Of a stretch of DNA of 44,212 nt, positions 10,298-44,212 are shown in pieces; position 1 is the first letter of the stretch, and each line of letters opens with the position of its first letter. The notes beneath the pieces are model-generated. The model worked only from the letters and a program-made list of their open reading frames with translations. It was not told where the DNA came from and did no database searches. The stretch covers positions 13,138 through 57,349 of the forward strand of contig CAZTWC010000002.1 of assembly GCA_964617105.1 (NCBI GenBank). The letters run 5' to 3'. This DNA comes from an uncultured Myxococcia bacterium (GTDB taxonomy: Bacteria > CAZTWC01). The position numbers and the translations under genes were made by a program.

Positions 10298-10447
10298 TTG
10301 AAAAGGACATATCAACCGCATACCAGAAAAGGCCTTAAAAAACATGGATTTTTAAAAAGGATGAGTACCTCGGATGGCCGGAAGATAATTAATAAACGGC
10401 GAAGAAAAGGCCGGGTCAAGTTGGCAGTCTGTTTTACTAAAAAGTGA
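10298..10447 (+). CDS. rpmH: 50S ribosomal protein L34 (not in the ORF track)
   Basis: TTG start after AAGGAGG. Translates to [49 protein letters not shown]; GTGA overlap with rnpA. Confidence 0.97.
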
Positions 10448-11003: not shown

Positions 11004-11034
11004 AGAAAAATATAGGATATATAGGATATAATGT

Positions 11035-12723: not shown

Positions 12724-12763
12724 AAACTTCAAAAATCTTTCAAAACATAAAGAGGAATGAAAA

Positions 12764-13507: not shown

Positions 13508-13680
13508 ACAGCAACCAGTAATTCTTTCCCTACCCTTCTAAAGCAATTATTGATGTAACCATCACAAAAAGACAGTTATACAACCATTTGACTTTTTATA
13601 AGTTTATCAAATATTAGTTGTAACCTATAATCCAATCTATTGACCGAATAATCTCGTTAAAACCAGTTTATGGAAAAGAT

Positions 13681-16889: not shown

Positions 16890-17472
16890 ACAAATTTGTC
16901 AAGAGCAAAAAATATTCTTTGACAAATACGCAGTAGATCAATTTATCGAATATAAAAATCAATTAAAAAAGTGGAATAAAATCCACAATATAATCAGATT
17001 AGCCAATGATGAGCAGTTGATTAGTAGAGATTTTTGTGATTCAATAATATTGAAAAAGATAATTAACAAAGGAGAGAAAGTTGCGGATATTGGCAGCGGC
17101 GCTGGAATACCAGGTTTAATATTAGCCATATTTGAAAGAGATATAGAGGTGGATTTAATTGAGAGTAAAAGAAAGAAGAGTAACTTTCTAAAAGAGGTCA
17201 AAAGAGTTCTTAATTTAGATAACGTAAAAATAATAGATCAATACTTGAACAAAAACAGCAAATTAGATGATTATGACACGGTTATTTCCCGAGCGGCTAT
17301 GAAGTTTGATAAATATTTAGACGTTGCCAAGAAATTAATTAAATCAGATGGAAAAATAATTTATTATTCCAATGATTTAAACCCAATGAACCGTAAGGGG
17401 GCCGAAAAGATTATTTCCTATCAAAATAGATTTATAATAGTATACAAACCAAAAACAAATAATCGTTGTTGA
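16864..17472 (+). CDS. rsmG: 16S rRNA m7G527 methyltransferase (GidB)
   Basis: KWNKIHNI, DIGSGAGIPG, ESKRKK, SRA; follows mnmG. Confidence 0.93.
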   Translation: MTKLIKIIEQICQEQKIFFDKYAVDQFIEYKNQLKKWNKIHNIIRLANDEQLISRDFCDSIILKKIINKGEKVADIGSGAGIPGLILAIFERDIEVDLIESKRKKSNFLKEVKRVLNLDNVKIIDQYLNKNSKLDDYDTVISRAAMKFDKYLDVAKKLIKSDGKIIYYSNDLNPMNRKGAEKIISYQNRFIIVYKPKTNNRC

Positions 17473-17496
17473 CAATAGTTTAAAAACCAGGATAAT
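17469..17496 (+). promoter_or_regulatory. Candidate sigma70 promoter for parAB
   Basis: TTGACA (17469-17474, overlapping the rsmG stop), 16-nt spacer, GATAAT (17491-17496). Confidence 0.45.
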
Positions 17497-17515
17497 TGAT
17501 GTCAATATTATTAAT

Positions 17516-17531
17516 TGTTTCACGTGAAACA
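17516..17531. promoter_or_regulatory. parS centromere-like site
   Basis: Perfect 16-bp palindrome TGTTTCACGTGAAACA, the canonical chromosomal parS, 2 nt before the parA ATG. Confidence 0.95.
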
Positions 17532-17533
17532 TT

Positions 17534-18310
17534 ATGGCAAAAATAATAAGCATTGCAAATCAAAAAGGGGGAGTCGGAAAAACGACTACCGCCTTAAATT
17601 TATCAGCATCCTTAGCGGTGGCTGAAAAAAAAGTGTTACTGGTTGACCTTGATCCTCAGGGTAACTCCAGTAGTGGATTAGGGATAAATAACAAAGATCT
17701 ATCGGGTAGCATCTACGAATCAATAATAGGAAATAGAAAAATTCAAGATGTGATAGTAAAAACAGAAATACCCTATCTTGAAATTGTCCCATCGAATAAC
17801 CATCTAGCTGGTGCTGAAATTGAACTTGTAGGCCAATATTCACGAGAGTATAAACTTAAAAAGATTTTGGCTGCTATTTCGTCTAATTATGATTTTATAA
17901 TGATCGACTGTCCTCCATCATTAGGGTTATTAACCATTAATGGTCTTGCTGCTGCCAATTCTATTATTATTCCATTGCAATGTGAATTTTATGCTCTAGA
18001 GGGACTAAGCAACTTATTTAACACTATTGAATTGGTTAAAGAAAACCTCAATAATAAACTATATGTTGAGGGAATATTATTAACCATGTTGGACAAAAGA
18101 AATAATATTTGTAAACAGGTGGCAAAAGAAGTAAATGAATTTTTTGCTCAACAAGTAAACGTGTTTAAGACAGTAATTCCCAGGAATGTTAAACTGAGTG
18201 AAAGTCCAAGTTTTGGTAAACCAATAATTTTATATGACGTTAATTCTATAGGTTGTAAATGTTATTTGGAATTTGCCAAAGAGTTACTTGAAAAACTGGG
18301 TGAGGTTTAA
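17534..18310 (+). CDS. parA: Chromosome partitioning ATPase ParA/Soj
   Basis: [49 protein letters not shown]. Confidence 0.97.
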
Positions 18311-18313
18311 GAT

Positions 18314-19237
18314 ATGAAAAAAAAAGTATTAGGAAAAGGGTTGGGAGCATTGTTTCCAGAAAAAAAAGAGATTTCTCTTAATGATGAAGATTTCAAAGAT
18401 GAAAATCTTAAAGAAGTAAATATTGAAGATATTGAGATAAATATATCCCAACCAAGGAAACTATTTGATCCGCAAAAACTAGAGGAATTGAAAAATTCTA
18501 TTGAAAATTATGGAGTACTACAACCAATAATTGTCAGGTATAATCCGGAGAGTGAAAAATACCTTATTATTGCTGGAGAACGGCGATATAGAGCTGCCAA
18601 ACTTTGCGGGTACCAAACCATTCCGGCGTTGGTTAAGAAGGATGAGGAAAAAAGGGATTACCAAATATCCCTGATAGAAAACATTCAGAGAGAAGATCTC
18701 AATCCTATTGAGAAGGCCAAAGCCTACGAAAAATTAATTCAAATAAACGAATATTCCCAAGAAGAAGTTTCTCTTCAATTGGGAATAAATAGAAGTACTA
18801 TTGCAAACAGTATAAGGTTGTTAAAATTACCAGACAAGATTAAAACCTATATTTGTGAAGGTAAAATAACTTCGGGACATGCCAGGGCAATTCTGGCTGT
18901 GGTAGAAGAAGATGGTCAAATAAAACTGGCCGACAAAATAATATCTGAAGAACTTAGTGTAAGACAAGCAGAAAAGTTATCAGGTGAAAATAATAAAAAG
19001 AGAAATAAAAAGAGCACCAAAAACGATAGGTTGCTAATGGTAAAAAAAGAGCATATTACTCAGATGTGCAGACTGCTTGAGAAAAAGTTTGACACTAAAG
19101 TAAAAATCAAAATAAAAGAAAACAAAAAAGGGACTAAGGGAAAAATTGAAATTGAATATTATTCTCCAGACGATTTTGGTAGAATTGTTACCAGGATTGT
19201 ACCAGAAATTGAATTTAGAAAAAATATCGGGGATTAA
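18314..19237 (+). CDS. parB: Chromosome partitioning protein ParB/Spo0J
   Basis: LGKGLGAL, QPRK, IAGERRYRA, ENIQREDLNPIE, RSTIAN, GHARA. Confidence 0.97.
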   Translation: MKKKVLGKGLGALFPEKKEISLNDEDFKDENLKEVNIEDIEINISQPRKLFDPQKLEELKNSIENYGVLQPIIVRYNPESEKYLIIAGERRYRAAKLCGYQTIPALVKKDEEKRDYQISLIENIQREDLNPIEKAKAYEKLIQINEYSQEEVSLQLGINRSTIANSIRLLKLPDKIKTYICEGKITSGHARAILAVVEEDGQIKLADKIISEELSVRQAEKLSGENNKKRNKKSTKNDRLLMVKKEHITQMCRLLEKKFDTKVKIKIKENKKGTKGKIEIEYYSPDDFGRIVTRIVPEIEFRKNIGD

Positions 19238-19326
19238 TCGAAGGCGTTTAATGCCTGGAGTAATGTGATAGCGTATATTTTTTAGCCAGATGGCTGAACT
19301 TATTGATTGATTGTTGGTGAAAAAAG

Positions 19327-19722
19327 ATGCGTAAAAGAGATGATGAAATGGTTTTGGATAATTCGGACGAGATTAATGCTTTGCTTGGCAAAGGGTGCGA
19401 ATTTCAAGGAAAACTTACTTTTAAAGGTACTGTAAGAGTTGAGGGAAAATTTAAAGGGGAGATAAAAACAAAAAGTAACCTGGTAGTGGGAGAAAATGCC
19501 CAGATAGATGGTGATTTAAATGTTGGTAGTATATTAATATTCGGAAACGTCACGGGGAATATCAGAGCTAATGATTATATTGTTATAAATCCAGGAGCCA
19601 GTGTGGAAGCTAACATTATTACCAAATCATTGGAGATAAAAAAAGGCGCAATTTTTGAAGGAAACTGTATGATGAACGATATAGTTGATTTCGACACACA
19701 AGCGAGACTGGATGAAATATAA
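19327..19722 (+). CDS. Bactofilin (polymer-forming cytoskeletal protein, BacM/CcmA-like)
   Basis: LGKGCEFQGKLTFKGTVRVEGKFKGEI and GAIFEGNCMM beta-helix repeats. Position after parB matches bacM of myxobacteria. Confidence 0.92.
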   Translation: MRKRDDEMVLDNSDEINALLGKGCEFQGKLTFKGTVRVEGKFKGEIKTKSNLVVGENAQIDGDLNVGSILIFGNVTGNIRANDYIVINPGASVEANIITKSLEIKKGAIFEGNCMMNDIVDFDTQARLDEI

Positions 19723-19733
19723 AGGGGTAAAAG

Positions 19734-20759
19734 ATGACCAATAAAAAAGATAAAAGTATTGAAAATCGAGAAAAAAAATTAGAGATCACAGTTGCTAATA
19801 TTGAAAGATCTTTTGGTAAAGGCGCGATAATGAGATTGGGAAAAAATGGCACAGATGCCATAAAAGTGCCTGTAATATCAACAGGATCGGTTGGATTGGA
19901 TCTCGCCCTGGGGGTTGGAGGAATTCCTAAAGGAAGGATTATAGAGATATTTGGACCGGAGTCATCGGGAAAAACTACCTTGAGTCTACATTTAATTGCC
20001 GAGGTTAACAAGGCGGGAGGAGTAGCCGCATTTATAGATGCTGAACATGCCCTTGACGCTGGATATGCCAAAAATATAGGTGTAAATGTTAATGATTTGC
20101 TGGTTTCACAACCCGATTACGGTGAGCAAGCCCTTGAAATTGCAGATACTTTAGTAAAATCAGGAGCGATAGATATAATAGTTGTTGATTCAGTAGCAGC
20201 CTTGACTCCCAGGGCTGAATTGGATGGTGACATGGGAGATTCTCACATGGGATTGCAAGCCAGATTAATGAGTCAAGCGATGAGAAAATTAACCGGCTCA
20301 ACCTATAAATCGCAAACTACAGTGGTTTTTATTAATCAAATTAGGATGAAAATTGGAGTAATGTTCGGCAGTCCAGAAACTACAACAGGTGGAAATGCGT
20401 TGAAATTTTATTCTTCTGTGCGGATGGATATCAGGCGAATCGGACAGTTAAAAATTGGTGATAATAAAGTGGGCAACAGAACCAAAGTTAAAGTAGTTAA
20501 AAATAAACTGGCGCCTCCTTTTAGGGAGGTTGAATTTGATATCATCTATGGTCAAGGAATATCAAAAGAGGGTGAATTGCTGGACATGGGAGTTCATTAC
20601 GGAATTATAGATAAAACCGGTTCATGGTTTGGTTACAAAAATCAGAGGTTAGGGCAGGGTAGAGAGAATTGCCGTGAATTTCTAAGAACTAACAAAGATT
20701 TGGCCGAAGAGATAACCCAAGCAATCTTTCAGCATCTTTCAGCCCCCAAGACGAGTTAA
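19734..20759 (+). CDS. recA: Recombinase A
   Basis: [56 protein letters not shown]. Confidence 0.99.
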
Positions 20760-21204: not shown

Positions 21205-21999
21205 TTATTCTGATAACTCCAGGTTATCAACTTCAAATTCTATGTTGGTGGGATCTATTTTAAACAGCCAGCCCTTATTTTGGGGGCTTTCCAATAGTAA
21301 ATTGATATCTTGCAATATCTCTTCATTATTCTTAATAATTCTACCGCTTAATGGGCATCCAATGGAGTGAATATGACCATCGGCGGCAGAAACTTTGGCG
21401 CATATTTCTCCCTGTTTGATATCATCCTTTACAGTAGGGAGTTCAATATTCACTATTTTGCCGACCTGGTTAATAAAATTGGGATCAGCACCAATTATTA
21501 CGCAGCCATCAGCACATATTTTGGCCCAAGAATGATTGGGCATTTTAAATAATTTTCCCGGTTCAATTCTTTTATCATCACCTGGGCTAAACATATCCGA
21601 CTCCCGGGCATAATCGGCAGGCTCTCTGAAGGCTCTGATCACTACGCTGCGCAATTCTTCTTTGGTGAAGGGTTTGGCAATAAAATCATAGGCACCCTTG
21701 CGAAGGGCCTTCATGGCGGTCGCCATGGTAGCGTAACCAGTTATCATTATGACTTTGATACTGCTTTTTTTCTCCTTAATCACTGATAACAGGTCGAGAC
21801 CATTCATGCCAGGCATCATAATATCGGAGATAACCAGATGGTAGTTATTGTTATCCAGTAGTTTTATGGCTTCATCGGCTGAAGAAGCGGCGTCGACAAG
21901 ATAATCATCCTTTTTAAAAATTCTCTTGATACTGGCTAAGACCACTGGTTCATCGTCTACCAGCAAAATATTATTAGTTTTGTCCATTTTGATCTCCAT
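21205..21999 (-). CDS. Response regulator: receiver domain fused to a glycine cleavage H-protein-like domain
   Basis: Receiver: LLVDDE, ISDIMMPG, ITG, KPF. C-domain: HSWAK..IIG..IELP..QGE..PLSGRI..N..LL.SP..GWLFKI matches the GcvH fold. Confidence 0.88.
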   Translation of the reverse strand: MEIKMDKTNNILLVDDEPVVLASIKRIFKKDDYLVDAASSADEAIKLLDNNNYHLVISDIMMPGMNGLDLLSVIKEKKSSIKVIMITGYATMATAMKALRKGAYDFIAKPFTKEELRSVVIRAFREPADYARESDMFSPGDDKRIEPGKLFKMPNHSWAKICADGCVIIGADPNFINQVGKIVNIELPTVKDDIKQGEICAKVSAADGHIHSIGCPLSGRIIKNNEEILQDINLLLESPQNKGWLFKIDPTNIEFEVDNLELSE

Positions 22000-23558
22000 T
22001 AAAAGTTGTTTATAGGCAAAATGAAGTTAGTTTTGGTTCTGCGTACTGTATCGGGGATGGGTAAAAAAATTTTAAAAATAGCCCCTTGTCCAGGGATTGA
22101 TTCAACCTCCATCTGCCCATCGTGCTGCTCCACAATTCCCCAACTTACCGCCAGGCCCAATCCGCTATTATTTTTCCCGCCTTTGGTAGAATAAAAGGGT
22201 TCAAATATATGCTCAAGATGTTCCGGTGGGATACCAGAACCAGAATCTCCAATAGATATCAATACCTTGTATTCATTCCAAAGGGTTTTGGTGGTAATAG
22301 TAATTACGCCGCCTTCAGGCATAGCCTCAGAGGCGTTGAGAAATAAGTTTAGAAACACCTGCTGTAATTGTCCCGGATCTGCATAGACGCCCGGCATATT
22401 GGCATCGTAATTTTGATTCAGTTTTATATTGAGGAATGAGGCTTGCTTTTTAATCAGTTGTTGGACCATTTCCAGCACTCTATTAACTTGGACCTCTTCA
22501 AAATGGGGTTTTTCTTGACGGGAAAAGTCGAGCAGGGTGCGGACAATATTGCGGCAGCGTAAAGTTTCTCTTACAATCAACTGGTAATCGTCCCGCTTTG
22601 GGTCATGATCATCGGCCTCTTCCAATAGATCTTCGCCAAAGGTCAAAATGCCGGTTAAAGGGTTGTTGAGTTCATGGGCAACATTGGCGGCCAATTTGCC
22701 GGTAGAAGCCAATTTTTCCGAAATTATTAATTGCTTTCCGGTGTCCTTTAGTTTGTCCTGCATTTGGTTAAAGGCTTTGGCTACTTTGCCAATTTCACCG
22801 GCGCCCGGTTTGATCACCGCATTCAGGTTACCATCAGTAATTAAATTAATACCCCGGAGCAACTCTTTTATTGGTACCCCCACCAGCCGGTTGGTCAAAA
22901 AATAGGAGAGGATGAAAGAGATTAAAGCCAACAGGGTAATAGTTAAGATCATCATATATTGCCATTTGGCGATTTTAATATCCAGGGACTGGTAGGAGAT
23001 TTGGATGTTCATAACTCCTAATACGGATTGATTTTTATTATGGACATGGCAGGAAGCGGTGTAGCAACTGGGCTGGTTATAAATGGGCAAAATGGCGAAT
23101 AACTGATGTTCTGAATCAGCAAATTTAATCACCGCTTTTTTAGGCATGGGTTTTAATAGTTTGTTCTGGTCCTGATGGCAGATGCTGCACTTAATGTCCT
23201 TGAGATAGGGGGAGTTGGCAGCGGGGTTATTAGCAGCGGGAATTTTTGTGGTGGAATGGTTGAAATAAGTGAGTTTTTGAATCTCTTTTTTAGTTAATAG
23301 TGATAGGAGAGAGGAGCGAATATTTTTACCCTCTCCGTGAAGCATATTGGAGTTGATCAATTGAGCGATGATCCAGGTAAGGCGCTGGGTGTTGCGCATA
23401 ACTTCTTCCATGGCCACCTGGCGATGGGTAATCAAGTTGATGGCAGTAAAAATACTCATGGGCACAATTAAAAAGATTGCCACAGTAATCCCTACTCTAA
23501 AGGCGATGGATGACTGCTTTAATTTGCGTATAAAGTTTTGCTTCATGCTCAAAACCAA
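21999..23558 (-). CDS. Membrane sensor histidine kinase (HAMP, NtrB-like) with Cys/His heme-c-type motifs in the periplasmic domain
   Basis: Two TM segments flank CSICH and CYTASCH; HAMP domain; AHELNNPL, NLFLNA, DSGSGI, FEPFYSTK, GLGL. Start may be ATG 23546. Confidence 0.93.
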   Translation of the reverse strand: MVLSMKQNFIRKLKQSSIAFRVGITVAIFLIVPMSIFTAINLITHRQVAMEEVMRNTQRLTWIIAQLINSNMLHGEGKNIRSSLLSLLTKKEIQKLTYFNHSTTKIPAANNPAANSPYLKDIKCSICHQDQNKLLKPMPKKAVIKFADSEHQLFAILPIYNQPSCYTASCHVHNKNQSVLGVMNIQISYQSLDIKIAKWQYMMILTITLLALISFILSYFLTNRLVGVPIKELLRGINLITDGNLNAVIKPGAGEIGKVAKAFNQMQDKLKDTGKQLIISEKLASTGKLAANVAHELNNPLTGILTFGEDLLEEADDHDPKRDDYQLIVRETLRCRNIVRTLLDFSRQEKPHFEEVQVNRVLEMVQQLIKKQASFLNIKLNQNYDANMPGVYADPGQLQQVFLNLFLNASEAMPEGGVITITTKTLWNEYKVLISIGDSGSGIPPEHLEHIFEPFYSTKGGKNNSGLGLAVSWGIVEQHDGQMEVESIPGQGAIFKIFLPIPDTVRRTKTNFILPINNF

Positions 23559-29640: not shown

Positions 29641-29760
29641 TAACCATATTAACTTGGCATTCACCCCATGAAATTGGAACTATGTCTGGAACTTAAGTTA
29701 TTTCATGGTGTTAAAATGCCGGAAATTCTTTTTATTCTTAACCAAAAGGAACCAAGACTT

Positions 29761-30924
29761 ATGAAAGTGAGAAACTATTTATTGATGTCCATGATTGCCC
29801 TTTTACTAGTAATTTTTGTCTCAGAGCCGGTTCGGGCCTGCCAGGATTATTGGTTGGACGGTTATTGCCCCAAGAGCCAGGCAGGTGAAAGCGTTTCTAC
29901 TCCGGAAAAGGGGAAAAATTTGGATATTTCCGGTTATGCCACCACCATGTTGGCTTTTAGGCAGAGCCAGGATGATATACCATACGTTGGCCGTCACGAT
30001 GGTTTTCAGTTACTGAGCGCCCGTCTAAAGTTTGAAGGGCAACACCAGTTTTTTGATTACTATATCTCCCTGGATGGCACCGCCTATCCTGAAACGAATA
30101 GCCGTAAACTGGATTTGGGAGCCAAGTATGTGCAACTCAAAGACTGCTTTGGCCGCATTAATATTGCCCCCTTTTTGCGCATCCGTTTTGGCCAGTTCAA
30201 AGCGCCTTTTAATGTGGAGGAGTTGGTAGATACCGAAAACCGCCTTTTAATCACCAATTCGGTGCTTAGTGAGGGAGTGCAGATTTATCAAGGGTTACAG
30301 GGGGCTCAGGAGGCTAATCCCATTAACCTTAAAAGGCAGGTAGGAATCTCTGTTATGGGGGATCTATTTAGCCTGCTGGGATATGAAATAATGGTATTCA
30401 ACGGTAATGGGTACAACCGTTTGGTAAATGACAACGACAACCTGGCAGTGGCAGGCAGATTAACCTTGAACCTGCTTAAGGGAGGCCTGGTTTTGGGTGC
30501 CAACAGCTATTACAACGAGATCTCGGTGGGGACGCCGGAGGATATGTTTCACGAGCGTTATCTGGCCTATGGAGCGGATCTCACTTTCAACCAATACAAT
30601 ATTACTCTGATGGCCCAGTTTTTAGGACGCAAAATCGAGTATCCCTCGTCCGGAGATTCTCAGGTTGACGGGTGGGGCGCTATGGCTTTAATAGGCTATA
30701 TGATCGAGGCTATAGATACACAACTGGTCTATCGTTTCTGCCAATTCGATCCCCTGAAAGATCCAGGGATTTACACTCTCCAGTACCACACTTTGGGAAT
30801 AAATTACTATTTTGCTCGAATTCCGGTGGTTCTAAAGACCAACTACCGGATTAAACTGGAGAAAGAAGACTCGAGAAGCATTAATAACGATGAGTTGTCT
30901 TTTTTATTGCAGTTCAGTTTCTGA
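29761..30924 (+). CDS. Outer-membrane porin (OprO/OprP-like beta-barrel)
   Basis: Signal peptide from ATG 29761, ARLKFEG, RFGQFKAPF, RQVG, amphipathic strands and terminal LQFSF. ORF track starts at 29668. Confidence 0.75.
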   Translation: MKVRNYLLMSMIALLLVIFVSEPVRACQDYWLDGYCPKSQAGESVSTPEKGKNLDISGYATTMLAFRQSQDDIPYVGRHDGFQLLSARLKFEGQHQFFDYYISLDGTAYPETNSRKLDLGAKYVQLKDCFGRINIAPFLRIRFGQFKAPFNVEELVDTENRLLITNSVLSEGVQIYQGLQGAQEANPINLKRQVGISVMGDLFSLLGYEIMVFNGNGYNRLVNDNDNLAVAGRLTLNLLKGGLVLGANSYYNEISVGTPEDMFHERYLAYGADLTFNQYNITLMAQFLGRKIEYPSSGDSQVDGWGAMALIGYMIEAIDTQLVYRFCQFDPLKDPGIYTLQYHTLGINYYFARIPVVLKTNYRIKLEKEDSRSINNDELSFLLQFSF

Positions 30925-31014: not shown

Positions 31015-34000
31015 ATGAAAAAAAATATTTATATTGGTTTACGGACCATAGTGATATTGGGAATGTTGTTGCCTTTGTTTTTAACTCTTCAAGGCTGCAA
31101 AAAGGGTGGCAGGGCTGAAAAAGCCAAAGCGGTTAGAATTACTTCCCGTTCCCAACTGATCGGGGGACCCGGCGCTATGGGTGAAGTGGGTGACTACTTG
31201 CTGGAAAACTCCCGCATCAGAGCAATTATTCAAGGGCCTGACCCGCAAGGCAGGTTTCTACAGGATCGGGGATTCTCCTCTTACGGCGGCAATCTGATTG
31301 ACGCAGATCTGGTGCGCCCGGAGATGAAAGGTGATTCCAGCGGTGGCAAAGGTTTCGATCATTTAGGTGAAATATTTACCTCTTTTTTCCTGTCTGCTAT
31401 CAAGCCGGAAAAAATAGAGATAATTGAAGACTATACCCCGCAGGGAGCGGTTGCTATCAGGGTTGCGGGTTGGTTGAACTATTTTTTAGCAATCACCGAT
31501 ACCGCGTGTCACGCCAGCTTTAACAGCGATTATATTATATTCAACGGCATAGAAGATGCAGTCAAGTGGCACTATCGCGACGGCAAGACCCTGTGGGGAG
31601 AAAATCTTTATATTCTACATCCCAACCAGAACTATCTGGAGATAGTCTCAACCTTGTATAATAAGAAAGGCTTTAAGATAGACTTCAGCAATTTAAAGCC
31701 CATTCATCTAGCATTCAAAGATGTAGCAGGCTTTAGGATGCCCATAATCGATATTGTCCTGTTTGGCTCTGGTAACCAGATGTTTGTTCCTGGCGGAGGG
31801 TATGAACTCAGGCATACTCTGGAGAATGTCCAAAAACTAGCCAGCCAACGGGCGAAAGAGGGCAAGTTCGGCATGCCAGCCTGGCCAGGTTTGGCCGCCG
31901 AATTTATTGCCACCAGCGGTTTTGACGGCAAAGTCTCTTACGGAATAGTTAATGAGCCCTCAGATGCTAACTTCATCTTTCAGAGCAATCAAAAGAAAAA
32001 GGGGGTAAAATACTATCAGGTGGAAGATGAGGATAAGGGTAGATCCCTGGTTCCCTTTAGCGCCTCTTCATTTACCGGGGTGATGCACGCTTTTTTACCT
32101 TCCAGCCTGGAGGCCAGGGGGGAGGAGGGGAGCAGTTTCAGCCACAAGCGCTATTTTGTAATAGGCAGTGGTGATGTGGCCTCAATCCGGGAAACGTATA
32201 ATCAGTTGCGGGGCCGGGAAACCGTCACCCTGGCGGGACAACTTTTAGAGGATAAGTATAGGACTCCGGTTAAGGGTGGCTCTATTTTGATCTATCGAAC
32301 CAATCAACAAACTCAGCAGGAGGAGCTGATAAACCAGGTTTACACTCGCGCTAACGGTTTTTTTCGAGCCCAGGTGACCCCTGGCGAATTCCGGCTGGTA
32401 GCCAGGAAAGAGAGTGGTAATTATTTGTCTTCCACCGAGTTGGAGGAGTTTCGTCAGGGATTGAGTGTCAAGGTAGAAAAAGGAAAACCGAACTTTGTCA
32501 CCATGCTTTTACCCCGCCGCAGTTTTATCAACGTCAGGGTAACTGATGAGCAGGGCAGGTTGATTCCTGCCAAAGTAACGGTGATAGGCACCTATAATTG
32601 TCCTGCCGCCGGTTGTATAGTCCAGGATATGCCCAGGTCTTTTCTCTACAATCTCAAAGAGGGTGAAAAATATAAGACTACCGATTTTATTCCGGATAAA
32701 CCAGATGATTTAACTACCCGCCAGTACGTGGAGGCGGTTTTTACCACTGCTAATGGACGCGGCGTTTTTCCGGTCAAATATAGCGGCCATCTTTTGCCGG
32801 GACACGATAAGGGCAAGGGTTATACCTTAAACGATACCTATACCGTGGTTTTCTCCCGGGGCCCGGAATACAATCTTGATAAGCAAAAGGTGAAGATCAA
32901 GCCGGGTGAAACCGTAAAAGTGAGAGGTATGCTCAAGCGGGTTGTAGACAGTAGCGGTTTTATCAGTGCTGATATGCACATTCACAGCGCCAAATCTTTG
33001 GACAGTAACTTCAGTCTTGCTAAGCGAATTACCGCTCATGCCGCTGAAGGGGTGGAATACCTGGTGATGACTGATCACAACTATTTTACCGAACTAAAAC
33101 CACTAATCCAACAGTTGCGCCTGGAGGACTGGATGAATTCTATGGTGGGTGTGGAGTTGACAACCCTGGAAACCGGGCATTTCAACGCTTTTCCTCTGCT
33201 GGTGGACCCCGCCAGTTCCACCCGTGGTTCTTTTCCCTGGTTCCAAAAGCCAGTGAAAGAGATTATTGCCACTTTAAAGGCCAAAGGATCCATGAGTCCC
33301 TTTGATACCCTGGTTATGGTCAACCATCCTCGGGATAATAATATGGGATATCTTTATCAGTTCAGAGTGGATCCCGATACTATGACAGTGCCAGAGAGGC
33401 AAAATATAACCCTGGAATATATATTAAAAGAGTTGGATATCACCGCCCCTCCGCCAGAGGATAAAGGGCTGAGCACGGATAGTTTCACCTGGGATTTCGA
33501 TCTGCTGGAAGTGTTTAATGGTAAGAGGCAGGATTTGATCTGGACCCAGGTGGCTGATGATAGTTTGACCAAACCTCTGCCGGCTAATATCGACCCTAAA
33601 CAGCAGCCCGGCCAAATTGTACGAGACGAAAAGGGTAAGGTGGCTTTTCCCGGTGCAGTGGACGATTGGTATAAAATGCTGGCCAAAAAAATGGAAGGCT
33701 CCTATTTTTAAGAACACTATAAAAAAACCGATTTCCCCCGCTATACCGCCGTTGCCAACTCCGACTCCCATTACCTGGTGCACGAACCGGGCGCTCCCCG
33801 CAACTATTTATATGTGGAAAAGGATCTTCCTCTTCAGGTCAGCATGGGAGATTTTGTGGACGCGGTCAAGTACAACCGCAGTGTAGCTTCCTATGGTCCC
33901 TTTATAAACTTTGAAATTGCCGGTAAAAAAGTTGGCGCTAAAGTGGAAGTTAACCAGGATAGCAACGTGGAAGTCTGGATTAAGGTTCAGGGTCCCGATT

Positions 34001-34421: not shown

Positions 34422-37400
34422 ATGAACCGTCGACTTTTTAATTTTTGGTTTCCTATAGGGTTTTTGTTGTTAGTTACACTATTTCTGAGTCTCCTGCCTG
34501 GCTGCGGCCGGGACTTTGAGCAGCAGGAGACTCAAAAAGAGGTGGCTAAAGATGGCGGTAACGGCATTGATGAGGATACTGACCTTGATGGCTTGACCGA
34601 TAGCCGGGAAAAGAAGATTGGCACCGATCCTTTTCATGCTGATTCAGATGGTGATAGCTTGGGAGATGGCCAGGAGATCGATCAATTTGGCACCGATCCG
34701 CTCAAGGCTGATACTGATGGCGATGGACTGGACGACGGCCAAGAGATTAAAAAGTTTTCCTCCAATCCCCAGGAAGAGGATAGCGATGGTGATGGCCTTA
34801 AAGATGGTCAGGAAGTAGAAAAGGGGTGTGATCCCACTAAAAAAGATAGCGATGGTGACAGTTTTGGTGATAACTACGAATTGAAAACTGGCACCGATCC
34901 CCAGGATAAAAAATCAGTCCCTACCATAGAATTTCCTCAGGGTCCGGTTTATTTATTTAAAACCCTTAAAGTTGATAAGCCCGCCATGCTGGGTTTCTTT
35001 ATGACCCCCGAGTCCGATATTTTACTCTATTTTGATGGTTTCACCGATGGTAAAAATGACCAAATTAAACTAATCGGGGGACCAGGAGAATATTATGGCC
35101 CGGGTCAAGATAAAGAGAAGGGCACCGTAGATGATCTATTTCGCTTCAATCAGGCAGCTTATGAGCGGATCCGGGGGGATGGGTGGAATATAAAAATAGA
35201 GTGCCAAATAAAGCAGGACAAAATCGAATGTGGCCCCGGTGAGATTAAATTGACTTTGGGCGTTGCCCAGTTTTTACAAGGAGGATTGAATCTTACCCTG
35301 AAAGAGGTGAAGATAGAGGGCCAGTTTAACCAGCAGAGAACCAAGATAATCGATCTCTCCTTGACTGCCATAATAGATAAGCAGGAGTTGGAAGAAGCCA
35401 TAATAACCTCCAAGTTGCTTAATATTAATGTAGATACTGTGTTGAAACTATTTGATCCCGGCAAAGGGGAAAAGATCGATTTAGGTCTCAAACTTTCCGC
35501 TCGAAAAGTAGAGGCAGCGGGCTTTGCCCCGGTTGATTCCTCCAAAAAGATTTTGCCTCGCAAATTAAATGGACAGAAGAGTTTTAGTGGTGTTTTGGAA
35601 GAGGGAGATGTAATCGATCCCTATATCAGTTTCAAGCAGCAGGGGATAAGTGATCCGGAAGAGGCTGAGTTAGTGGATCGGGCCATGGCGGAGATAATCA
35701 AACAGGAGTCGGTGGATATGGTATTTACTACCCGCAAGGAGAGTAAAACGGGTGATCGTATTTACCAGGTAGTTTCCGCTCGGGGAGAAGTAGTTTTCAA
35801 GCGGGTAAGGGAAAAGGGGAAAGAGACTCAATATCAGATAATGAAAGTAACCGGAGTATCTCCTCTGGTAGGAGTTGATGATCCAACTCACATGGGAACC
35901 TATCAGCAGGAGCTCGCAGCCGGCTCCAATCCCAAAAACACATCGCTCAGTGGATACCAGGGAGCAGAAGATCCCAGGCTCAGTTTTGTGGAACCTGAAG
36001 ATCATGGCTATCCCCACGCCTATGAGCGGATCAGTGCTTTTTTTGATGAACCCAGAGCCGGTGATCTGGTTATTTTAGGAAAACCGTACAATGGTTCGGG
36101 CGGCACCCATGGCAACCTGGACATCACCCAGTCTCGAGCACCTCTTATTGTGGCTGGACCAGGAGTGCGGGCCTCTTCAGATGATCCAGCCAGTGCTGAT
36201 TTTGAAATCCTGGCTGATGGCAGCAAAGCTCTGTTTCTCAACCGGGCGGCCAAACTGGTTGATATCGCTCCCACTGTGGCGGCGTCCCTGGGCTGTAAGC
36301 GCACCACCGGCATAGACCAGCACGGACAATACAACTCCAGTCTCTACCTGAAGTGGCAGGATGGCAGCATGTTGGCGGAGGTGTTTGCCAATAAGCCCAA
36401 GTTTGAAATCGCCCAGGCGGAATATGCCGTAATTATAATAAATGACGGGCTCAACGGCAATGAATTGCTGCACCAGGTTTTTAACCAGGAGTTTAATGTT
36501 CCCAACTACCGGCGCCTGATGAAACAGGGAGTTACTTTTCGTTATGGCGCCATCGGTAATTTTCCTTCGTCCACTTTACCTAGTCACAATACCATTGGCT
36601 CAGGCGTTTATTCCGGTCACCACGGAATTCTGGATAATAGTTTTTATCATAGGGAGTTGGGAATTCATGTGAGTCCTGGCATGGATGCCAGTTATTTGCT
36701 GGGCACCTCTATTGAGGGGATTCCAATGGAAACCCTGCACGAAACAATTCACCGCAATTTTGGTGCCTACCATCCCTATAAGCGTACGGGCGCTTTTACG
36801 GTTTCGCTTTTTAATCCCTCCACCCGAGGGGCTGATTTTGCCACTTTGGATCGGGATTTGATGCCCTCTTATATTAACCTGGGGATTGCCGCCAACCAGG
36901 TTAAGATTAAGGAAAAAATCTATAATCTACCCGCTGTGCCGATGATGGATTACGGGGGATTAGTGGATAATTCCAGCACCTACAATTTTTATCGATTATA
37001 TACGGGCAAACAGGCTAAAATACCTAAGTTCAGCATCACCAATCTGGTATCCACCGATGGAGCAGGCCATCAGGCCGGTCCTCACGGCGATTATTTGCGC
37101 ACGGTTGTAGAGCGCAACGACAAGAGGCTGGAAATAATCCTCGATACTCTGGAGGCAGCTGGAATCTGGGAAAAGACCCTTTTTATTCTCACGGCTGATC
37201 ACGGCATGGAACTGCAGGATAAAAGTCGGCGTGGCGATAAATTGGAGGGCTTGAAAAAATCAGGTATCAAATATATTAGTTCGGGAAAATCGATTTACTT
37301 GCCCCGCCTTGTCACCCAGGTTACTCCCGCTCAGTTCAGGCAAAATCAGCCGGTCAAGTTGAAAGTAGTGGTCACCGACCTGCACACGGGCAAACCAGTC

Positions 37401-37568
37401 CAAAAGGCTCAGGTGAAGATAACCGAAGGGGGACCGGCCCTGAAGAAAGAGACTAACCAGAATGGCCAGGTCCTTCTCGATTTTACTCCCGAAGGTTCTC
37501 TCCTGAAGTTAGAAATTACCAGCCTTGACCATAACCGCAAGTTGTTGGAGTATACCGTAGATAAATAG
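34422..37568 (+). CDS. Lipoprotein with Ca-binding DxDxDG repeats and an alkaline phosphatase/nucleotide pyrophosphatase-fold domain
   Basis: Lipobox LPGC, five D(T/S)DxD(G/S)xxD..E repeats; NDG, PSSTLPSH, DGAGH, TADHG, THG and DIAPT motifs. Confidence 0.85.
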   Translation: MNRRLFNFWFPIGFLLLVTLFLSLLPGCGRDFEQQETQKEVAKDGGNGIDEDTDLDGLTDSREKKIGTDPFHADSDGDSLGDGQEIDQFGTDPLKADTDGDGLDDGQEIKKFSSNPQEEDSDGDGLKDGQEVEKGCDPTKKDSDGDSFGDNYELKTGTDPQDKKSVPTIEFPQGPVYLFKTLKVDKPAMLGFFMTPESDILLYFDGFTDGKNDQIKLIGGPGEYYGPGQDKEKGTVDDLFRFNQAAYERIRGDGWNIKIECQIKQDKIECGPGEIKLTLGVAQFLQGGLNLTLKEVKIEGQFNQQRTKIIDLSLTAIIDKQELEEAIITSKLLNINVDTVLKLFDPGKGEKIDLGLKLSARKVEAAGFAPVDSSKKILPRKLNGQKSFSGVLEEGDVIDPYISFKQQGISDPEEAELVDRAMAEIIKQESVDMVFTTRKESKTGDRIYQVVSARGEVVFKRVREKGKETQYQIMKVTGVSPLVGVDDPTHMGTYQQELAAGSNPKNTSLSGYQGAEDPRLSFVEPEDHGYPHAYERISAFFDEPRAGDLVILGKPYNGSGGTHGNLDITQSRAPLIVAGPGVRASSDDPASADFEILADGSKALFLNRAAKLVDIAPTVAASLGCKRTTGIDQHGQYNSSLYLKWQDGSMLAEVFANKPKFEIAQAEYAVIIINDGLNGNELLHQVFNQEFNVPNYRRLMKQGVTFRYGAIGNFPSSTLPSHNTIGSGVYSGHHGILDNSFYHRELGIHVSPGMDASYLLGTSIEGIPMETLHETIHRNFGAYHPYKRTGAFTVSLFNPSTRGADFATLDRDLMPSYINLGIAANQVKIKEKIYNLPAVPMMDYGGLVDNSSTYNFYRLYTGKQAKIPKFSITNLVSTDGAGHQAGPHGDYLRTVVERNDKRLEIILDTLEAAGIWEKTLFILTADHGMELQDKSRRGDKLEGLKKSGIKYISSGKSIYLPRLVTQVTPAQFRQNQPVKLKVVVTDLHTGKPVQKAQVKITEGGPALKKETNQNGQVLLDFTPEGSLLKLEITSLDHNRKLLEYTVDK
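34575..34907 (+). repeat. Five 22-23 aa bacterial TSP3-like calcium-binding repeats
   Basis: DTDLDGLTD..GTDP, DSDGDSLGD..GTDP, DTDGDGLDD..SNP, DSDGDGLKD..GCDP, DSDGDSFGD..GTDP. Confidence 0.85.
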
Positions 37569-40750: not shown

Positions 40751-43135
40751 CTAGTCCCCATTTACAGCCACTGGTTTCCAACGGGAGCCAAGAGGCGTAT
40801 CCTCCACAATTATACCATGCTCGGTTTTTAAGTTTTCCCTTAATTGGTCTGCTTTTTGCCAATCTTTCTGCTTACGGGCTTTTTCCCGCTGTTTGATTAT
40901 AGAATAGATCTCTTCTGAAATAGCCTCCTCTTCCGGAGAGGGCATTATACCCAGTACCTGGTCCAGCCGGTTCAGGGACTGAATGATTTTGGGACCATCT
41001 TTTTTTGCCAGGGTACCGGCGCTGATCAGGCAGTTTGCCTTGCGGATAAAATTGAACACTGCTCCCAGAGCGGCCGAGATGTTCAGGTCATCATTCATAG
41101 ATTGCTCAAAACTAGTTTCCATCTCGTTTATGATCCGCGGCAAAGCATCGGAATCTTCCCCATTGCCGGTTATGGAGCGGGTATTCCAGATAAACATATC
41201 AAATCGCTGTAAAGCGTTTTTTGCGGCAGTCAGACGTTGTAGCGAGAAATGGAGCGGCTGGCGATAGTGGATGGAAAGCAGTGCATAACGGATCTCCCGT
41301 CCGCTGAAACCCTGGGAGAAAATATCTTCCAGAAAGATAGCGTTCTTTCCCTGATGCGACATTTTGCTGCCCTGGTTTAACACCGTTTCATTGTGGAGCC
41401 AGTAATTGGCCAGTTGCTTGCCGCTTAAGGCCTCGGTTATGGCGATTTCATTTTCATGGTGGGGAAAAGTTAAATCCAGGCAACTGGTGTGAATATCAAT
41501 GGATTCACCCAGCAGTTTTGTGCACATAGCAGCGCATTCAATATGCCAACTAGGCCTCATGTTACCCCATTTGGTTTTAAAGAAGATATTATTTTTTAAT
41601 TCCGCCAGGTTGGCCCGCTTGAACAGGGTAAAATCACGAGGGTTTTCTTTTTCATAATTATCTAGATCCACTGTGGCGCCTAACTTGATTTTGCTCAGGT
41701 CAACCCCGGACAATTTGCCATAATCAGCATATTTAGCGATATCAAAATAGACTGACCGGTGTTTAATGTAGGCATATCCCATCAAAACCAGGTTTTCTGC
41801 CATTTCGATCATCTCCTGCACATAATCGCTGGCTCTGGCGTACTGAAAGGGTTTGATGTTTAAAGCTTCCAATTCCTGGAGGAATTGCTCAAACACCTGG
41901 GTGGTTAATTCTCGCATATCCACCCCGGATTTCAGGGCTGCTTCGATGGTGTTGTCATCCAGATCAGTTATATTGATTACATGTTTAACTTCGTACCCGC
42001 AAAATTCCAGGTTGCGGCGCAGAAGATCGGCAACTATCAACCTCCGGTAGAGAGCCAGGTGGGGAACAGTATTGACCGTGGGGCCGCAGGTGTAGATAGA
42101 AACTTCATTAGGTTTGAGAGATTTGAAGGGCTCTTTTTTTCTGGCCAGGGTGTTGTAAATTTTCAGATTTGATTTGGTGGCCTCCGGGGTGAATCCCTGG
42201 AATAACTGAGTTGAGAGGTAGCGTTCACCGCCGTCTGGTAAAATGGTGACCACTATCCCCTCATCTAACTGCCTGGCCACTTGCTGAGCAGCATAGACCG
42301 CCGCGCCGGCACTCATACCCACCAGCAGACCCTCTTTTTTTGCCAGTTCTCTGGAGGTTTGAAAGGCTTGCTCATTCTCTACCACCAGTTTTTGATCCAT
42401 TAGAGAACGGTTAAAAATCCCGGGGATATAAGAATCTTTTAGATTTTTTAGCCCCTGGATAGCGTGGCCAACTGTGGGTTCGGCTCCTATTATTTTTATA
42501 TCAGAATTGTACTGTTTTAAGCGGGCGCCGGTTCCCATAAGCGTTCCGGTAGTCCCGATGGTAGCCACAAAATGGGTTACTGCACCCCTGGTTTGCTGCC
42601 AGATCTCCTTTCCGGTGCTGAAGTAATGAGCAAGAAGGTTGTAGGGGTTATTAAACTGGTCGGTTAAAAGATATTTATCGGGTTCCTGGCGGTACAGGTC
42701 ATAGGCCACTTCAATGGCGCCGTCAGTGCTGAGGTGCGGTGGAGTAAGCAAAAAATCGGCTCCATAGGCAGCCAGAATTTTTTTTCGCTCTTCACTGGCG
42801 TTCTCAGCCATGGCCAGGAGTATTTTATAACCTTTTATTGCAGCCACCATGGCCAGTCCAATACCGGTGTTGCCGCTGGTGGCCTCCAGGATTATTTTTT
42901 CGGGGGTCAACTCTCCTGACTGCTCAGCATGTTCGATCATAGAGAGGGCAATTCGATCTTTTACTGAGCCTCCAGTGTTTAAAAATTCCGTCTTGGCAAA
43001 TATTTTTACCCGGGGATTGGGGTTGAGGTGCACTATTTCAATCAGGGAAGTATTACCGATGCCGTCCAAAATATTGTTATAAGCCCGCTTTTTAAAAGGG
43101 TTGGTATACTGGGCCAGATTGTTATAGTCGATCAT
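40751..43135 (-). CDS. cysS: Fusion of cysteine synthase (CysM/CysK-type PLP enzyme) and cysteine--tRNA ligase
   Basis: About aa 20-312: GGSVKDR, EATSGNTG, DQFNN, GTTGT, PDGGERYLST. About aa 323-794: IYNTL, YTCGPTV, NITD, RDFTLFK, RPSWHIEC, FPHHENE, HYR, DDLN, ADxLR. One uninterrupted 794-aa ORF. Confidence 0.95.
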   Translation of the reverse strand: MIDYNNLAQYTNPFKKRAYNNILDGIGNTSLIEIVHLNPNPRVKIFAKTEFLNTGGSVKDRIALSMIEHAEQSGELTPEKIILEATSGNTGIGLAMVAAIKGYKILLAMAENASEERKKILAAYGADFLLTPPHLSTDGAIEVAYDLYRQEPDKYLLTDQFNNPYNLLAHYFSTGKEIWQQTRGAVTHFVATIGTTGTLMGTGARLKQYNSDIKIIGAEPTVGHAIQGLKNLKDSYIPGIFNRSLMDQKLVVENEQAFQTSRELAKKEGLLVGMSAGAAVYAAQQVARQLDEGIVVTILPDGGERYLSTQLFQGFTPEATKSNLKIYNTLARKKEPFKSLKPNEVSIYTCGPTVNTVPHLALYRRLIVADLLRRNLEFCGYEVKHVINITDLDDNTIEAALKSGVDMRELTTQVFEQFLQELEALNIKPFQYARASDYVQEMIEMAENLVLMGYAYIKHRSVYFDIAKYADYGKLSGVDLSKIKLGATVDLDNYEKENPRDFTLFKRANLAELKNNIFFKTKWGNMRPSWHIECAAMCTKLLGESIDIHTSCLDLTFPHHENEIAITEALSGKQLANYWLHNETVLNQGSKMSHQGKNAIFLEDIFSQGFSGREIRYALLSIHYRQPLHFSLQRLTAAKNALQRFDMFIWNTRSITGNGEDSDALPRIINEMETSFEQSMNDDLNISAALGAVFNFIRKANCLISAGTLAKKDGPKIIQSLNRLDQVLGIMPSPEEEAISEEIYSIIKQREKARKQKDWQKADQLRENLKTEHGIIVEDTPLGSRWKPVAVNGD

Positions 43136-43243
43136 GACAACTCCATAGTTCGTCGCTTACATAACTGTGAGTATGCGCGTTTATCAAGGCCTTTAGGCCA
43201 TCCCTTTAGGGACGCCATAATGTAAATATATTTTAAGCGTGCC

Positions 43244-43912
43244 CTAAGGGCAAACTTTTTTTCTGGGAGTAATGCCGTTTTTAGGGCAATGAGGCTCTAA
43301 AATACACTGGTGGCAGCATGGGGAGATGGGTCTACAGGTATGTTGACCATGGGCAACCAGGATACTGTTGATGGTCAGCCAGTATTTTGAGGGTAGTTTT
43401 TTCCTTAAAGCCATCTCTGTTTCCAGGGGGGTTTTAGTATCAACATATCCCCAGATGTTCATTATACGGTGTACGTGGGTATCCACGCAAATAGCCGGTT
43501 TGCCAAATCCGATAACTCTTACCAGGTTGGCGGTTTTCCGTCCAACCCCTGGTAGTTTAACCAAAGAATCGATTTGGTCAGGCACTATACCGTTAAATTT
43601 GTCAGCCAGCACTTTCGGAAGTTGCCGCAGGAATTTGGCTTTGTTGCGATAGAATCCCACCGGGTAGATTTTTTGGGCTATCTCTTCTTCCGACATCTTT
43701 TGCAGGTCATAAATGTGGTCCAGGCTATTGAATAGGCGTTTTACCGCTTTGGTGGTAATTTTATCGGTGGTGCGGGCCGAAAGAATGGTGGCCACCAGGA
43801 CCTTCCAGGGCTCTTTGGTCTGGGCCTGAACCAGATCCACTATTGGAACTTTATATTCCTTCGCTTTTTTTAACAAGGCGGGAATTGCTATGTCAAGGTC
43901 TATAACATTCAT
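43244..43912 (-). CDS. nth: Endonuclease III (HhH-GPD DNA glycosylase with 4Fe-4S cluster)
   Basis: ILSART, GFYRNKA, LPGVGRKTAN, VDTHVHR, CRPISPCCHQCILEPHC. ATG at 43912 preferred. Confidence 0.95.
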   Translation of the reverse strand: MNVIDLDIAIPALLKKAKEYKVPIVDLVQAQTKEPWKVLVATILSARTTDKITTKAVKRLFNSLDHIYDLQKMSEEEIAQKIYPVGFYRNKAKFLRQLPKVLADKFNGIVPDQIDSLVKLPGVGRKTANLVRVIGFGKPAICVDTHVHRIMNIWGYVDTKTPLETEMALRKKLPSKYWLTINSILVAHGQHTCRPISPCCHQCILEPHCPKNGITPRKKVCP

Positions 43913-44212
43913 TAGGGACAATCATTACTAAGGCTGATTTTTTTGTCAAGGGTAGATTGCACACGAGAGATGGTGATGAGCCAATCGACCTGTCCAGAAT
44001 CCCAAGAGTAATCAATAGTTGCTTCACCCCATCCAATCTTGACTAGTTTAGCGATTTGCATTCCTTCCCAGGCGGTGGTTCCCTGGTTGCGGCCATTTAG
44101 ATGTGGTGATAGCAACGATTAAATGAAATTAGCGATCAGTAGCCCTTTGATTAACCAGGTTAATTCGTCACGAGTTAATACTTTTTGCTGACATCGATAA
44201 AATCTATTAAGA

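Follow-up and report, generated by a model that had tools for sequence, protein, structure and literature searches.

A cysteine synthase joined in one gene to a CysRS-like domain with non-canonical class-I signatures in an uncultured Myxococcia bacterium

We analysed a 44,212-nucleotide stretch of DNA (hereafter the window) from an uncultured Myxococcia bacterium (assembly GCA_964617105.1, contig CAZTWC010000002.1), the minus strand of which carries a gene that joins, in one frame, a pyridoxal 5'-phosphate (PLP)-dependent cysteine synthase to a cysteinyl-tRNA synthetase (CysRS)-like protein (Table 1). The open reading frame (ORF), as read from the ORF list and its translation, starts with ATG, holds no internal stop and encodes one protein of 794 amino acids (P0001), just as a preliminary description of this DNA had reported. 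Pfam recognizes PALP at residues 22-301 of this protein (E 2.2e-64) and tRNA-synt_1e at residues 337-639 (E 3e-88), and both NCBIfam models that apply are passed, cysKM (TIGR01136) with 362.1 bits over residues 24-312 (cut-off 344.15) and cysS (TIGR00435) with 410.8 bits over residues 324-787 (curated cut-off 340). Between the two matches lies a linker of about the ten residues first described, at roughly residues 313-323. The fusion of synthase and CysRS is real: it is a single gene, and both of its halves are full-length.

The junction of the two halves falls at about 42160-42200, and Logan contigs from four sequencing runs (X1 to X4) span it without a differing letter, an indel or a joint. 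Record 1 of X1 covers the whole stretch, record 3 of X2 positions 41444-43300, record 7 of X3 positions 41635-42581 and record 15 of X4 positions 42095-43106; X1 and X2 are possibly the source of the window DNA and hence not independent support, and X3 and X4 belong to the same study as X1. Read support across the junction had been proposed as a check on the fusion, and these contigs bridge the site unchanged, with no stop seen between the domains. Since the same architecture recurs in the best 120 database relatives and in 131 of 301 genomes considered below, with no stop at the junction, the fusion is not an assembly artefact.

The gene belongs to a sizeable family. The best 120 database relatives of the whole protein are all fusions, 765-818 amino acids long and 51-56% identical, and those that carry a name are called 'cysteine--tRNA ligase'. 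When the CysRS-like half is used as the query, PALP is present in all of the 120 best hits but one (119/120), a fragment on a 1.6-kb contig, and the cultured Desulfobulbus propionicus DSM 2032 (P0167) is among these hits. ESM Atlas clusters with the fusion architecture comprise 143, 113, 71 and 64 members, mostly from Thermodesulfobacteriota and Myxococcota.

The N-terminal half matches Escherichia coli CysM (2bhs) along its full length (1.3e-77). Across 83 aligned family members K59, the TSGNTG loop at 86-91, G194, T195, G197, T198 and S275 are invariant; we take K59 to be the PLP-binding lysine, residues 86-91 the substrate (Asn) loop and residues 194-198 the PLP-phosphate loop. This half does not reach the equivalog cut-offs of either CysM (368 vs 394.2 bits) or CysK (320.4 vs 350.95 bits), and in the alignment it has K230-N231 where E. 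coli CysM carries R-R. The claim that the PLP cysteine synthase is complete nonetheless stands, in that the domain is full-length and keeps the invariants of its family, and its sequence suggests that it bears all the hallmarks of an active cysteine synthase.

The C-terminal half matches the CysRS structure 8qhp at 4.7e-93 and that of E. coli, 1li5, at 3.8e-81, and its binding sites are kept. C350, C534, H559, E563 and W530 correspond to C28, C209, H234, E238 and W205 of the E. coli enzyme, presumably its zinc-ligand and cysteine-site residues, and T390 is identical to T68 in a structure-based alignment. Towards the C-terminus R754, W759, D763 and R766 correspond to E. coli R427, W432, D436 and R439, and D779 to D451. 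Two conserved cysteines of CysRS bind the active-site zinc according to the excerpt available of PMC5660078, and the excerpt of PMC13449415 names R427, W432, D436 and R439 as residues of the anticodon-binding domain of E. coli CysRS, with R427 bonding to G34. The two class-I signatures depart from the canon in the window copy: HIGH, which follows the pattern x-x-G-H/N, is represented by HLAL, and KMSKS by KMSHQ, without the second lysine. These motifs hold the two residues by which class-I enzymes stabilize the ATP transition state.

These positions were tallied over 198 full-length fused sequences, not de-duplicated, and compared with 20 stand-alone CysRSs (27 for the second lysine). Among the fused proteins C350 and C534 are each kept in 196, H559 in all 198, E563 in 187, W530 in 193 and T390 in 196, and R754, D763, R766 and D779 of the anticodon domain are kept in every one (198/198). 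At the second lysine of KMSKS, lysine is found in 2/198, with 16 different residues in its place, vs 27/27 stand-alone CysRSs (20/20 and 7/7), and the fourth position of HIGH is histidine or asparagine in 56/198 (11 different residues) vs 20/20. The HIGH glycine, present in 20/20 stand-alone enzymes, is alanine in 43 fused proteins including the window copy. Both motifs are canonical in 0/198. R488, an arginine in 19/20 stand-alone CysRSs, has become threonine in 197/198 fused proteins, and position 355 is tyrosine in 18/198 vs 20/20; the canonical invariants replaced across the family are Y355, R488, W505, W519, G526 and K594. Judged from these alignments, the pattern of loss is selective, with the cysteine and anticodon sites held and the two ATP-transition-state residues free to vary. 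The earlier statement that the CysRS is complete thus holds for its length and for its score above the cysS cut-off, and fails as regards catalysis, for which the half is predicted not to be complete, both class-I signatures being non-canonical (HLAL and KMSHQ).

Table 1. Features of the fused gene; positions are those of the 44,212-nucleotide window (whole stretch) and residue numbers those of the 794-amino-acid fused protein.
Feature	Position	Strand	Basis
Whole fused gene, protein P0001	40751..43135	-	794 amino acids plus stop; ORF list and translation
GGAG, Shine-Dalgarno-like site	43141..43144	-	5 nt 5' of the ATG; read from the sequence
CysK/CysM-type PLP cysteine synthase domain, residues 22-312	42200..43072	-	Pfam PALP; TIGR01136; E. 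coli CysM 2bhs
Codon of putative PLP-binding lysine K59 (SVKDR)	42959..42961	-	K in 198/198 fused proteins; aligned to E. coli CysM motif
Inter-domain linker, residues 313-323 (approximate)	42167..42199	-	Gap between TIGR01136 and TIGR00435 matches; AlphaFold2 pLDDT <50 at 314-319
CysRS-like class-I catalytic body including connective-peptide (CP) insertion, residues 324-639	41219..42166	-	Pfam tRNA-synt_1e; 8qhp, 1li5
HIGH equivalent, HLAL, residues 359-362	42050..42061	-	Aligned to E. coli CysRS HIGH
KMSKS equivalent, KMSHQ, residues 591-595	41351..41365	-	Aligned to E. coli CysRS KMSKS 266-270
DALR_2 helical anticodon-binding domain, residues 676-730	40946..41110	-	Pfam E 9.1e-08, 33 bits, cut-off 22
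CysS_C anticodon-binding domain, residues 738-783	40787..40924	-	Pfam E 1.5e-07; holds R754, W759, D763, R766, D779

The altered half shows the marks of continued selection. Among seven related fusion genes with the signatures HLAH and KMSAD (KMSVD in L019), the median pairwise ratio of non-synonymous to synonymous substitution rates (dN/dS) is 0.061 for the CysRS-like half and 0.058 for the synthase half, over 21 usable pairs, 7 further pairs involving L011 having been dropped as saturated; on this measure the CysRS-like half is not a relic, and purifying selection on it is as strong as on the synthase half. Of 226 positions with at least 95% conservation among the other 120 family members, 217 are retained by the window copy. 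The HIGH glycine is one of its nine departures, and for departures at such positions it ranks 118th of 121; it is, by these counts, divergent but clearly constrained. An AlphaFold2 model built from an alignment of 83 sequences has a mean predicted local distance difference test (pLDDT) score of 88.6, with confident domains and low confidence in the linker at 314-319, and a complex prediction with the halves as separate chains scored 0.41 against 0.40 for its control. It could be supposed that the two halves are uncoupled, and that an ordinary synthase carries a CysRS-derived tail for folding, oligomerization or localization, for instance as a tether near the translation machinery. Such a tail would agree with the want of a specific inter-domain interface in the AlphaFold2 prediction (predicted template modelling score, pTM, 0.63), with the failure to find a conserved gene neighbourhood and with the separate cysK and cysS that most fusion-bearing genomes already possess. 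A dN/dS of 0.06 is unexpected for a passive tail, however, and the 198 sequences, drawn from several phyla, retain the four zinc/cysteine-site and four anticodon residues at 94-100%, so that we consider this explanation highly improbable.

In a FastTree phylogeny of 121 fused CysRS-like domains and 20 diverse stand-alone CysRSs, arbitrarily rooted on one bacterial group, the fused domains form a single clade (SH-like support 0.975), the sister of which is the CysRS of locus L012 from an archaeal metagenome-assembled genome (MAG). The housekeeping CysRSs of fusion-bearing genomes are placed far from this clade. The window copy is a long-branch singleton (0.618) and sister, with support of 1.0, to a 60-member clade with TLGL and KMSRS. 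An origin of the fusion from an adjacent cysM-cysS gene pair may reasonably be inferred from this tree, short of proof with so few stand-alone sequences and an arbitrary root.

The genome to which the window belongs (489 contigs, 96.5% complete, 3.35% contamination) also encodes the separate enzymes. Its stand-alone cysS specifies 476 amino acids with HIGN and KMSKS, a stand-alone cysK is present, and cysE is found in two pieces, at the ends of contigs C380 and C188, of which the C188 piece lies directly upstream of cysK. SepRS (sepS) and SepCysS were not found in this genome, the best scores being 57.6 bits vs a cut-off of 380.65 and 28.1 bits vs 365.25, respectively; the genome inventory that had been recommended thus yielded stand-alone cysS and cysE, without SepRS or SepCysS. 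The contigs with the fusion, cysS, cysK and tRNA-Cys have a composition typical for the bin, their tetranucleotide distances falling between its 11th and 56th percentiles, and as the genome has separate cysS and cysK on such contigs, the fusion represents an extra copy of both functions. The genome is marine, and the collection searched contains no other from its phylum, the 40 relatives offered being kin at domain level only. It has 36 tRNAs in total, one of them tRNA-Cys(GCA); there is also one tRNA-Sec(TCA), and the organism probably uses selenocysteine.

Co-occurrence of the fusion with cysS was followed in 301 genomes of at least 95% completeness from the phylum of G045 (the sulfate-reducer phylum), in which related genomes are not independent; a fusion was called from a match with E at most 1e-150, in one frame, over query residues about 15-790. 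Full-length fusions occur in 131 of the 301 genomes, in agreement with the remark in the preliminary description that similar fusions exist in sulfate-reducer relatives. All 301 have at least one cysS-family match. A separate cysS-type sequence was counted, by hand cross-tabulation, in 129 of the 131 fusion-bearing genomes: 123 were scored by a best cysS match with E at or below 1e-154, the fused halves scoring only 1e-99 to 1e-134, and among the matches listed most second cysS matches were judged by score. The remaining eight genomes were inspected directly, and six of them contain a separate stand-alone-type cysS, frame-broken in G081 and fragmentary at contig ends in G234; the separate cysS of G173 is incomplete, its frame of 419 amino acids corresponding to model positions 1-384. 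From none of the 170 fusion-free genomes is cysS missing altogether. In a smaller named set stand-alone cysS accompanies the fusion in 9/10 genomes, the exception, G049, being a low-coverage MAG, and a separate cysK in 7/10. In-frame stops were flagged in 13 of the 131 fusion matches, none of them at the junction; in five loci the tblastn stops fall at query positions 7-13 or 783-792, outside the real ORFs, and the other eight alignments are stop-free.

Two candidates were discarded during this survey. G015 had appeared as a fusion-only genome, its 793-aa frame proving to be a GC-rich artefact around an ordinary CysRS, and G006 as a fusion genome, where the long frame is a CysRS catalytic domain with a family-2 glycosyltransferase (GT2) and has no cysteine synthase. 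The latter protein (locus L051, 316-2493) comprises 725 amino acids, with HIGN and KMAKS and without DALR or CysS_C, and may be an MshC-like cysteine ligase for a sugar thiol; a normal cysS is found in the same genome. CysRS is fused to a cysteine-pathway enzyme of another kind in a Nitrospirota MAG (L027, 1658-3775), where 705 amino acids combine N-terminal hexapeptide repeats, possibly serine acetyltransferase-like, with a canonical CysRS (HIGH, KMSKS). In L018 (G047, 949-3344) the PALP part (393 amino acids) and the CysRS-like part (456 amino acids) are encoded by overlapping ORFs in two different frames, the product of either a frameshift or faulty assembly.

Almost every fusion-bearing genome has cysS as well, the catalytic positions are unconstrained and the binding positions constrained, and purifying selection is strong; together these findings argue for a non-housekeeping binding paralogue. 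Our reading, held tentatively, is that the gene joins a cysteine synthase to a CysRS paralogue that binds cysteine and tRNA-Cys, performs little or no charging, and couples cysteine synthesis to the status of cysteine or of tRNA-Cys. The component of this reading on which we would rely most is that physiologically relevant charging has probably been lost from the CysRS-like half. The zinc pocket would still bind cysteine and the GCA anticodon of tRNA-Cys would still be read, while ATP-dependent activation would no longer be selected and the separate, canonical cysS would charge for the cell. Among possible mechanisms the likeliest would then be that the half serves as a built-in sensor or docking module for free cysteine and/or uncharged tRNA-Cys, passing its signal to the attached synthase so that cysteine output would follow the demand of translation. 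It is conceivable, though we would not press it, that it senses one or both of these ligands and tunes the synthase as HisZ does HisG. A functional link between cysteine synthesis and tRNA-Cys is in any case likely, probably through binding or sensing rather than through charging.

Several observations weigh against this reading. K591, in the first half of the KMSKS loop, is retained in 192/198 fused proteins, and the whole 470-residue body including the anticodon domains is kept; an active synthetase would look alike. HisZ is not known to have an anticodon-binding domain, and the CysRS-like half keeps its own. A fixed geometry between the domains is not predicted by AlphaFold2, given the pTM of 0.63 and the low-confidence linker, conserved neighbours across lineages were not found in the window and related loci, and an Rfam scan at gathering thresholds detected no riboswitch or leader near the gene in the window and six related loci. 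In two genomes, G154 (HLGE/KMSHE) and G324 (HIGQ/KMPNT), the fusion stands alone, no other CysRS catalytic domain and no SepRS having been found there; this 2/131 is a small excess, not significant by a rough, uncomputed estimate, and gaps in fragmented MAGs could explain it, but it is equally compatible with a fusion that is competent in charging. Loss of the second lysine is by itself no proof of lost charging either, because E. coli CysRS with K266A, K269A or K266/269A 'had intact protein synthesis potential' in a cell-free system, as the available excerpt of Akaike et al. 2017 states (PMC5660078).

Much of this could also be accommodated by a second, unusual but working CysRS. Such a protein would be bifunctional, loading the cysteine that it makes, with a high local concentration that offsets a weak ATP site, and it would be used under specific conditions, side by side with the housekeeping synthetase. 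It would account for the 410.8 bits against a cysS cut-off of 340, for the retention of the zinc site, W530, T390, the anticodon contacts and K591-M-S, and for the strong purifying selection implied by a dN/dS of 0.061; the behaviour of the E. coli K269A mutant in the same excerpt (PMC5660078), the two genomes in which the fusion is the only detectable CysRS, and the nature of the closest relative outside the fusions, an archaeal CysRS with canonical HIGN/KMSKS that lies directly after cysM, point the same way. Yet 129 of 131 fusion-bearing genomes have a separate cysS, and with 16 residues at the second lysine and 11 at HIGH position 4 the catalytic positions look unconstrained. The change of the HIGH glycine to alanine in the window copy and 43/198 of the family, of R488 to threonine in 197/198, and the survival of Y355 in only 18/198 as opposed to 20/20 stand-alone enzymes likewise make a working synthetase rather unlikely in our judgement. 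The suggestion that newly made cysteine is channelled to charging by a complete CysRS accordingly finds its premise unsupported, with both motifs canonical in none of the 198 proteins and cysS retained in the window's genome and in 129/131 others.

A different role might lie in sulfur chemistry that depends on tRNA, the protein holding tRNA-Cys, perhaps once the housekeeping enzyme has charged it, while its PLP half makes or exchanges the beta-substituent, or acting as a dedicated cysteine persulfide synthase. The combination of tRNA-Cys recognition residues and a PLP enzyme in one chain invites this idea, as does the PLP-dependent persulfide synthase activity (CPERS) of E. coli CysRS, which requires K73, K76, K266 and K269 according to the excerpt of PMC5660078. 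Only one of these four lysines is kept in the window copy (N395, E398, K591, H594), however, and they are poorly kept in the family, the equivalents of K73, K76 and K269 being lysine in 52/198, 13/198 and 2/198 fused proteins. The hosts are sulfur-cycling anaerobes, to judge by their names, and in one lineage a gene for an NrfD-type, polysulfide-reductase-like membrane subunit precedes the fusion, but this neighbour is limited to one group of close relatives, the six Desulfurivibrio-type loci in which the upstream gene was scanned (L015, L016, L017, L019, L021 and L022). The two active sites, moreover, lie in separate domains for which no fixed contact is predicted, and there is neither a SepRS nor a SepCysS to supply a tRNA-bound precursor. 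We therefore regard sulfur chemistry of this kind as improbable, and the proposal that sulfur is inserted on a tRNA-bound precursor has found no support in a genome with no SepRS or SepCysS detected and one ordinary tRNA-Cys(GCA).

The preferred reading, a synthase coupled to a binding paralogue of CysRS, can also be carried further, to a tRNA-gated or tRNA-using cysteine enzyme that would operate as a T-box-like switch or remodel a side chain on the tRNA, although we think it doubtful that the protein goes so far. In the T-box-like version, uncharged tRNA-Cys read through its anticodon would turn the synthase on and cysteine at the zinc site would turn it off. In a bolder version the protein would hold Cys-tRNA-Cys made by the housekeeping enzyme, and the PLP domain would remodel the side chain on the tRNA, for example to a persulfide or a selenol.

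As regards its surroundings, the fusion gene in the window lies downstream of nth (43244-43921, same strand) and converges on a gene for a CheY-like receiver, miaA and mutL. The upstream gene in L011 encodes a GT2. A tRNA gene is found about 75 nt 3' of the fusion in eight Desulfurivibrio-type loci, and it is tRNA-Arg(TCT), not tRNA-Cys; no tRNA genes were found in the window or in the examined stretches of L011 and L013, and ARAGORN called none in L012.

Elsewhere, positions 6880-20759 of the window form a chromosomal origin region, where the minus strand carries an N-terminal recF-like fragment, dnaN and dnaA, and the plus strand rnpA, yidC, jag (R3H), mnmE, mnmG, rsmG, parA, parB, a bactofilin gene and recA. 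The sign of the GC skew changes from negative to positive at around 8-10 kb, and oriC is probably situated in the dnaA-rnpA gap, at about 10033-10443. At 6218-7308 on the minus strand a recF-like ORF of 142 amino acids (the N-terminal AAA/SMC part) is followed by a 165-aa ORF without a Pfam match, and recF may be split or truncated. Between 8000 and 20000, a run of 12 kb made up of housekeeping genes, the GC content is 0.33 vs 0.44 for the genome, and the tetranucleotide distance of 0.046 exceeds the 95th percentile of the bin (0.024), which reflects either a real bias near the origin or a chimeric contig join; the fusion-bearing part from 20 to 44 kb is typical of the bin. A minus-strand gene at 21205-21999 combines a response-regulator receiver with a glycine-cleavage H-protein (lipoyl-carrier) domain, an unusual output for a two-component system, and lies directly downstream of a HAMP histidine kinase gene (21999-23558). 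On the plus strand, 34422-37568 encodes a protein of 1048 amino acids with bacterial TSP3 repeats and a type I phosphodiesterase/nucleotide pyrophosphatase domain, upstream of which are large ORFs at 29668-30924 and 31015-33711 without a Pfam match.

No paper on a fusion of cysteine synthase with CysRS was found in the literature, and the statement in the preliminary description that no mechanistic study was known is upheld in that none was found. PMC2922099 and PMC5424206 treat cysteine synthase and CysRS only separately, and in the excerpt available a 2022 review of paralogues of aminoacyl-tRNA synthetases lists only CysRS* and MshC for CysRS (PMC9437257). Thousands of these proteins bear the label 'cysteine--tRNA ligase', while the evidence indicates that they are not the housekeeping ligase; owing to such mislabelled fusions, automated reconstructions of sulfate reducers and their relatives miscount cysS and cysteine synthases. 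Should our reading prove true, the CysRS-like half would be a class-I counterpart of HisZ and the whole protein a rare metabolic enzyme with a complete, sequence-specific tRNA reader. It would provide a directly testable tie between the supply of an amino acid and the charging of a single tRNA, and nearly half of the genomes sampled in the sulfate-reducer phylum carry the fusion. Remodelling on the tRNA, if it occurs, would be a new entry route for altered residues into the proteins of sulfur-cycling anaerobes. With the window copy the family reaches a marine lineage that branches deeply and is the only one of its phylum in the collection.

Set beside known systems, the synthase half shares the PLP lysine, the TSGNTG loop, the phosphate loop and S275 with the O-acetylserine sulfhydrylases CysM and CysK (TIGR01136; 2BHS), from which it differs in that its C-terminus continues into a CysRS-like body of 470 residues, that it remains below the CysM equivalog cut-off and that it carries K230-N231. 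With canonical CysRS (TIGR00435; 1LI5/1U0B; 8QHP) the other half has in common the class-I body, the CP insertion, DALR, the C-terminal anticodon domain and the zinc ligands, whereas its HLAL and KMSHQ, its replaced invariants, its clade of its own and its place beside a housekeeping cysS set it apart. The closest unfused relatives of both halves are the CysM (364 bits) and the CysRS (421 bits) of L012, an archaeal MAG locus where a cysM-cysS-nifS-nifU cluster occupies 5953-10073 and cysM overlaps cysS by 10 nt. There they are two genes, with a canonical HIGN/KMSKS CysRS, no other CysRS having been found in that 0.4-Mb bin. A weak tRNA-like Rfam match (32.7 bits, gathering threshold 29), with no ARAGORN call, covers the 5' end of the L012 cysS at 6918-6973.

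CysRS-derived proteins with non-housekeeping roles have precedents in MshC and in CysRS*, the latter from related bacteria, as given in the excerpt of the 2022 review (PMC9437257). CysRS* of Desulfobacterales is described there as without an anticodon-binding domain and coupled to SelC*/SelB*; the fused half, in contrast, has both DALR_2 and CysS_C, and the window is without a tRNA gene, SelB* not having been searched for. MshC, the Cys:GlcN-Ins ligase, is not a match for the fused protein, which scores 192.7 bits in TIGR03447 vs a cut-off of 485.1. A system that the fusion may resemble in its working is HisZ-HisG. HisZ, according to the same excerpt (PMC9437257), is a paralogue of HisRS that has no adenylation activity and mediates the allosteric control of histidine synthesis, namely its inhibition by histidine. 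It is a class II protein and a separate subunit, whereas the fused half, known here by its sequence, is class I, covalently attached and still equipped with anticodon readers. As a comparison of how the two may work, and of that only, the likeness lies in a putatively non-charging paralogue of an aminoacyl-tRNA synthetase that has lost its catalytic motifs, stands beside the real synthetase and is tied to the biosynthetic enzyme of its own amino acid.

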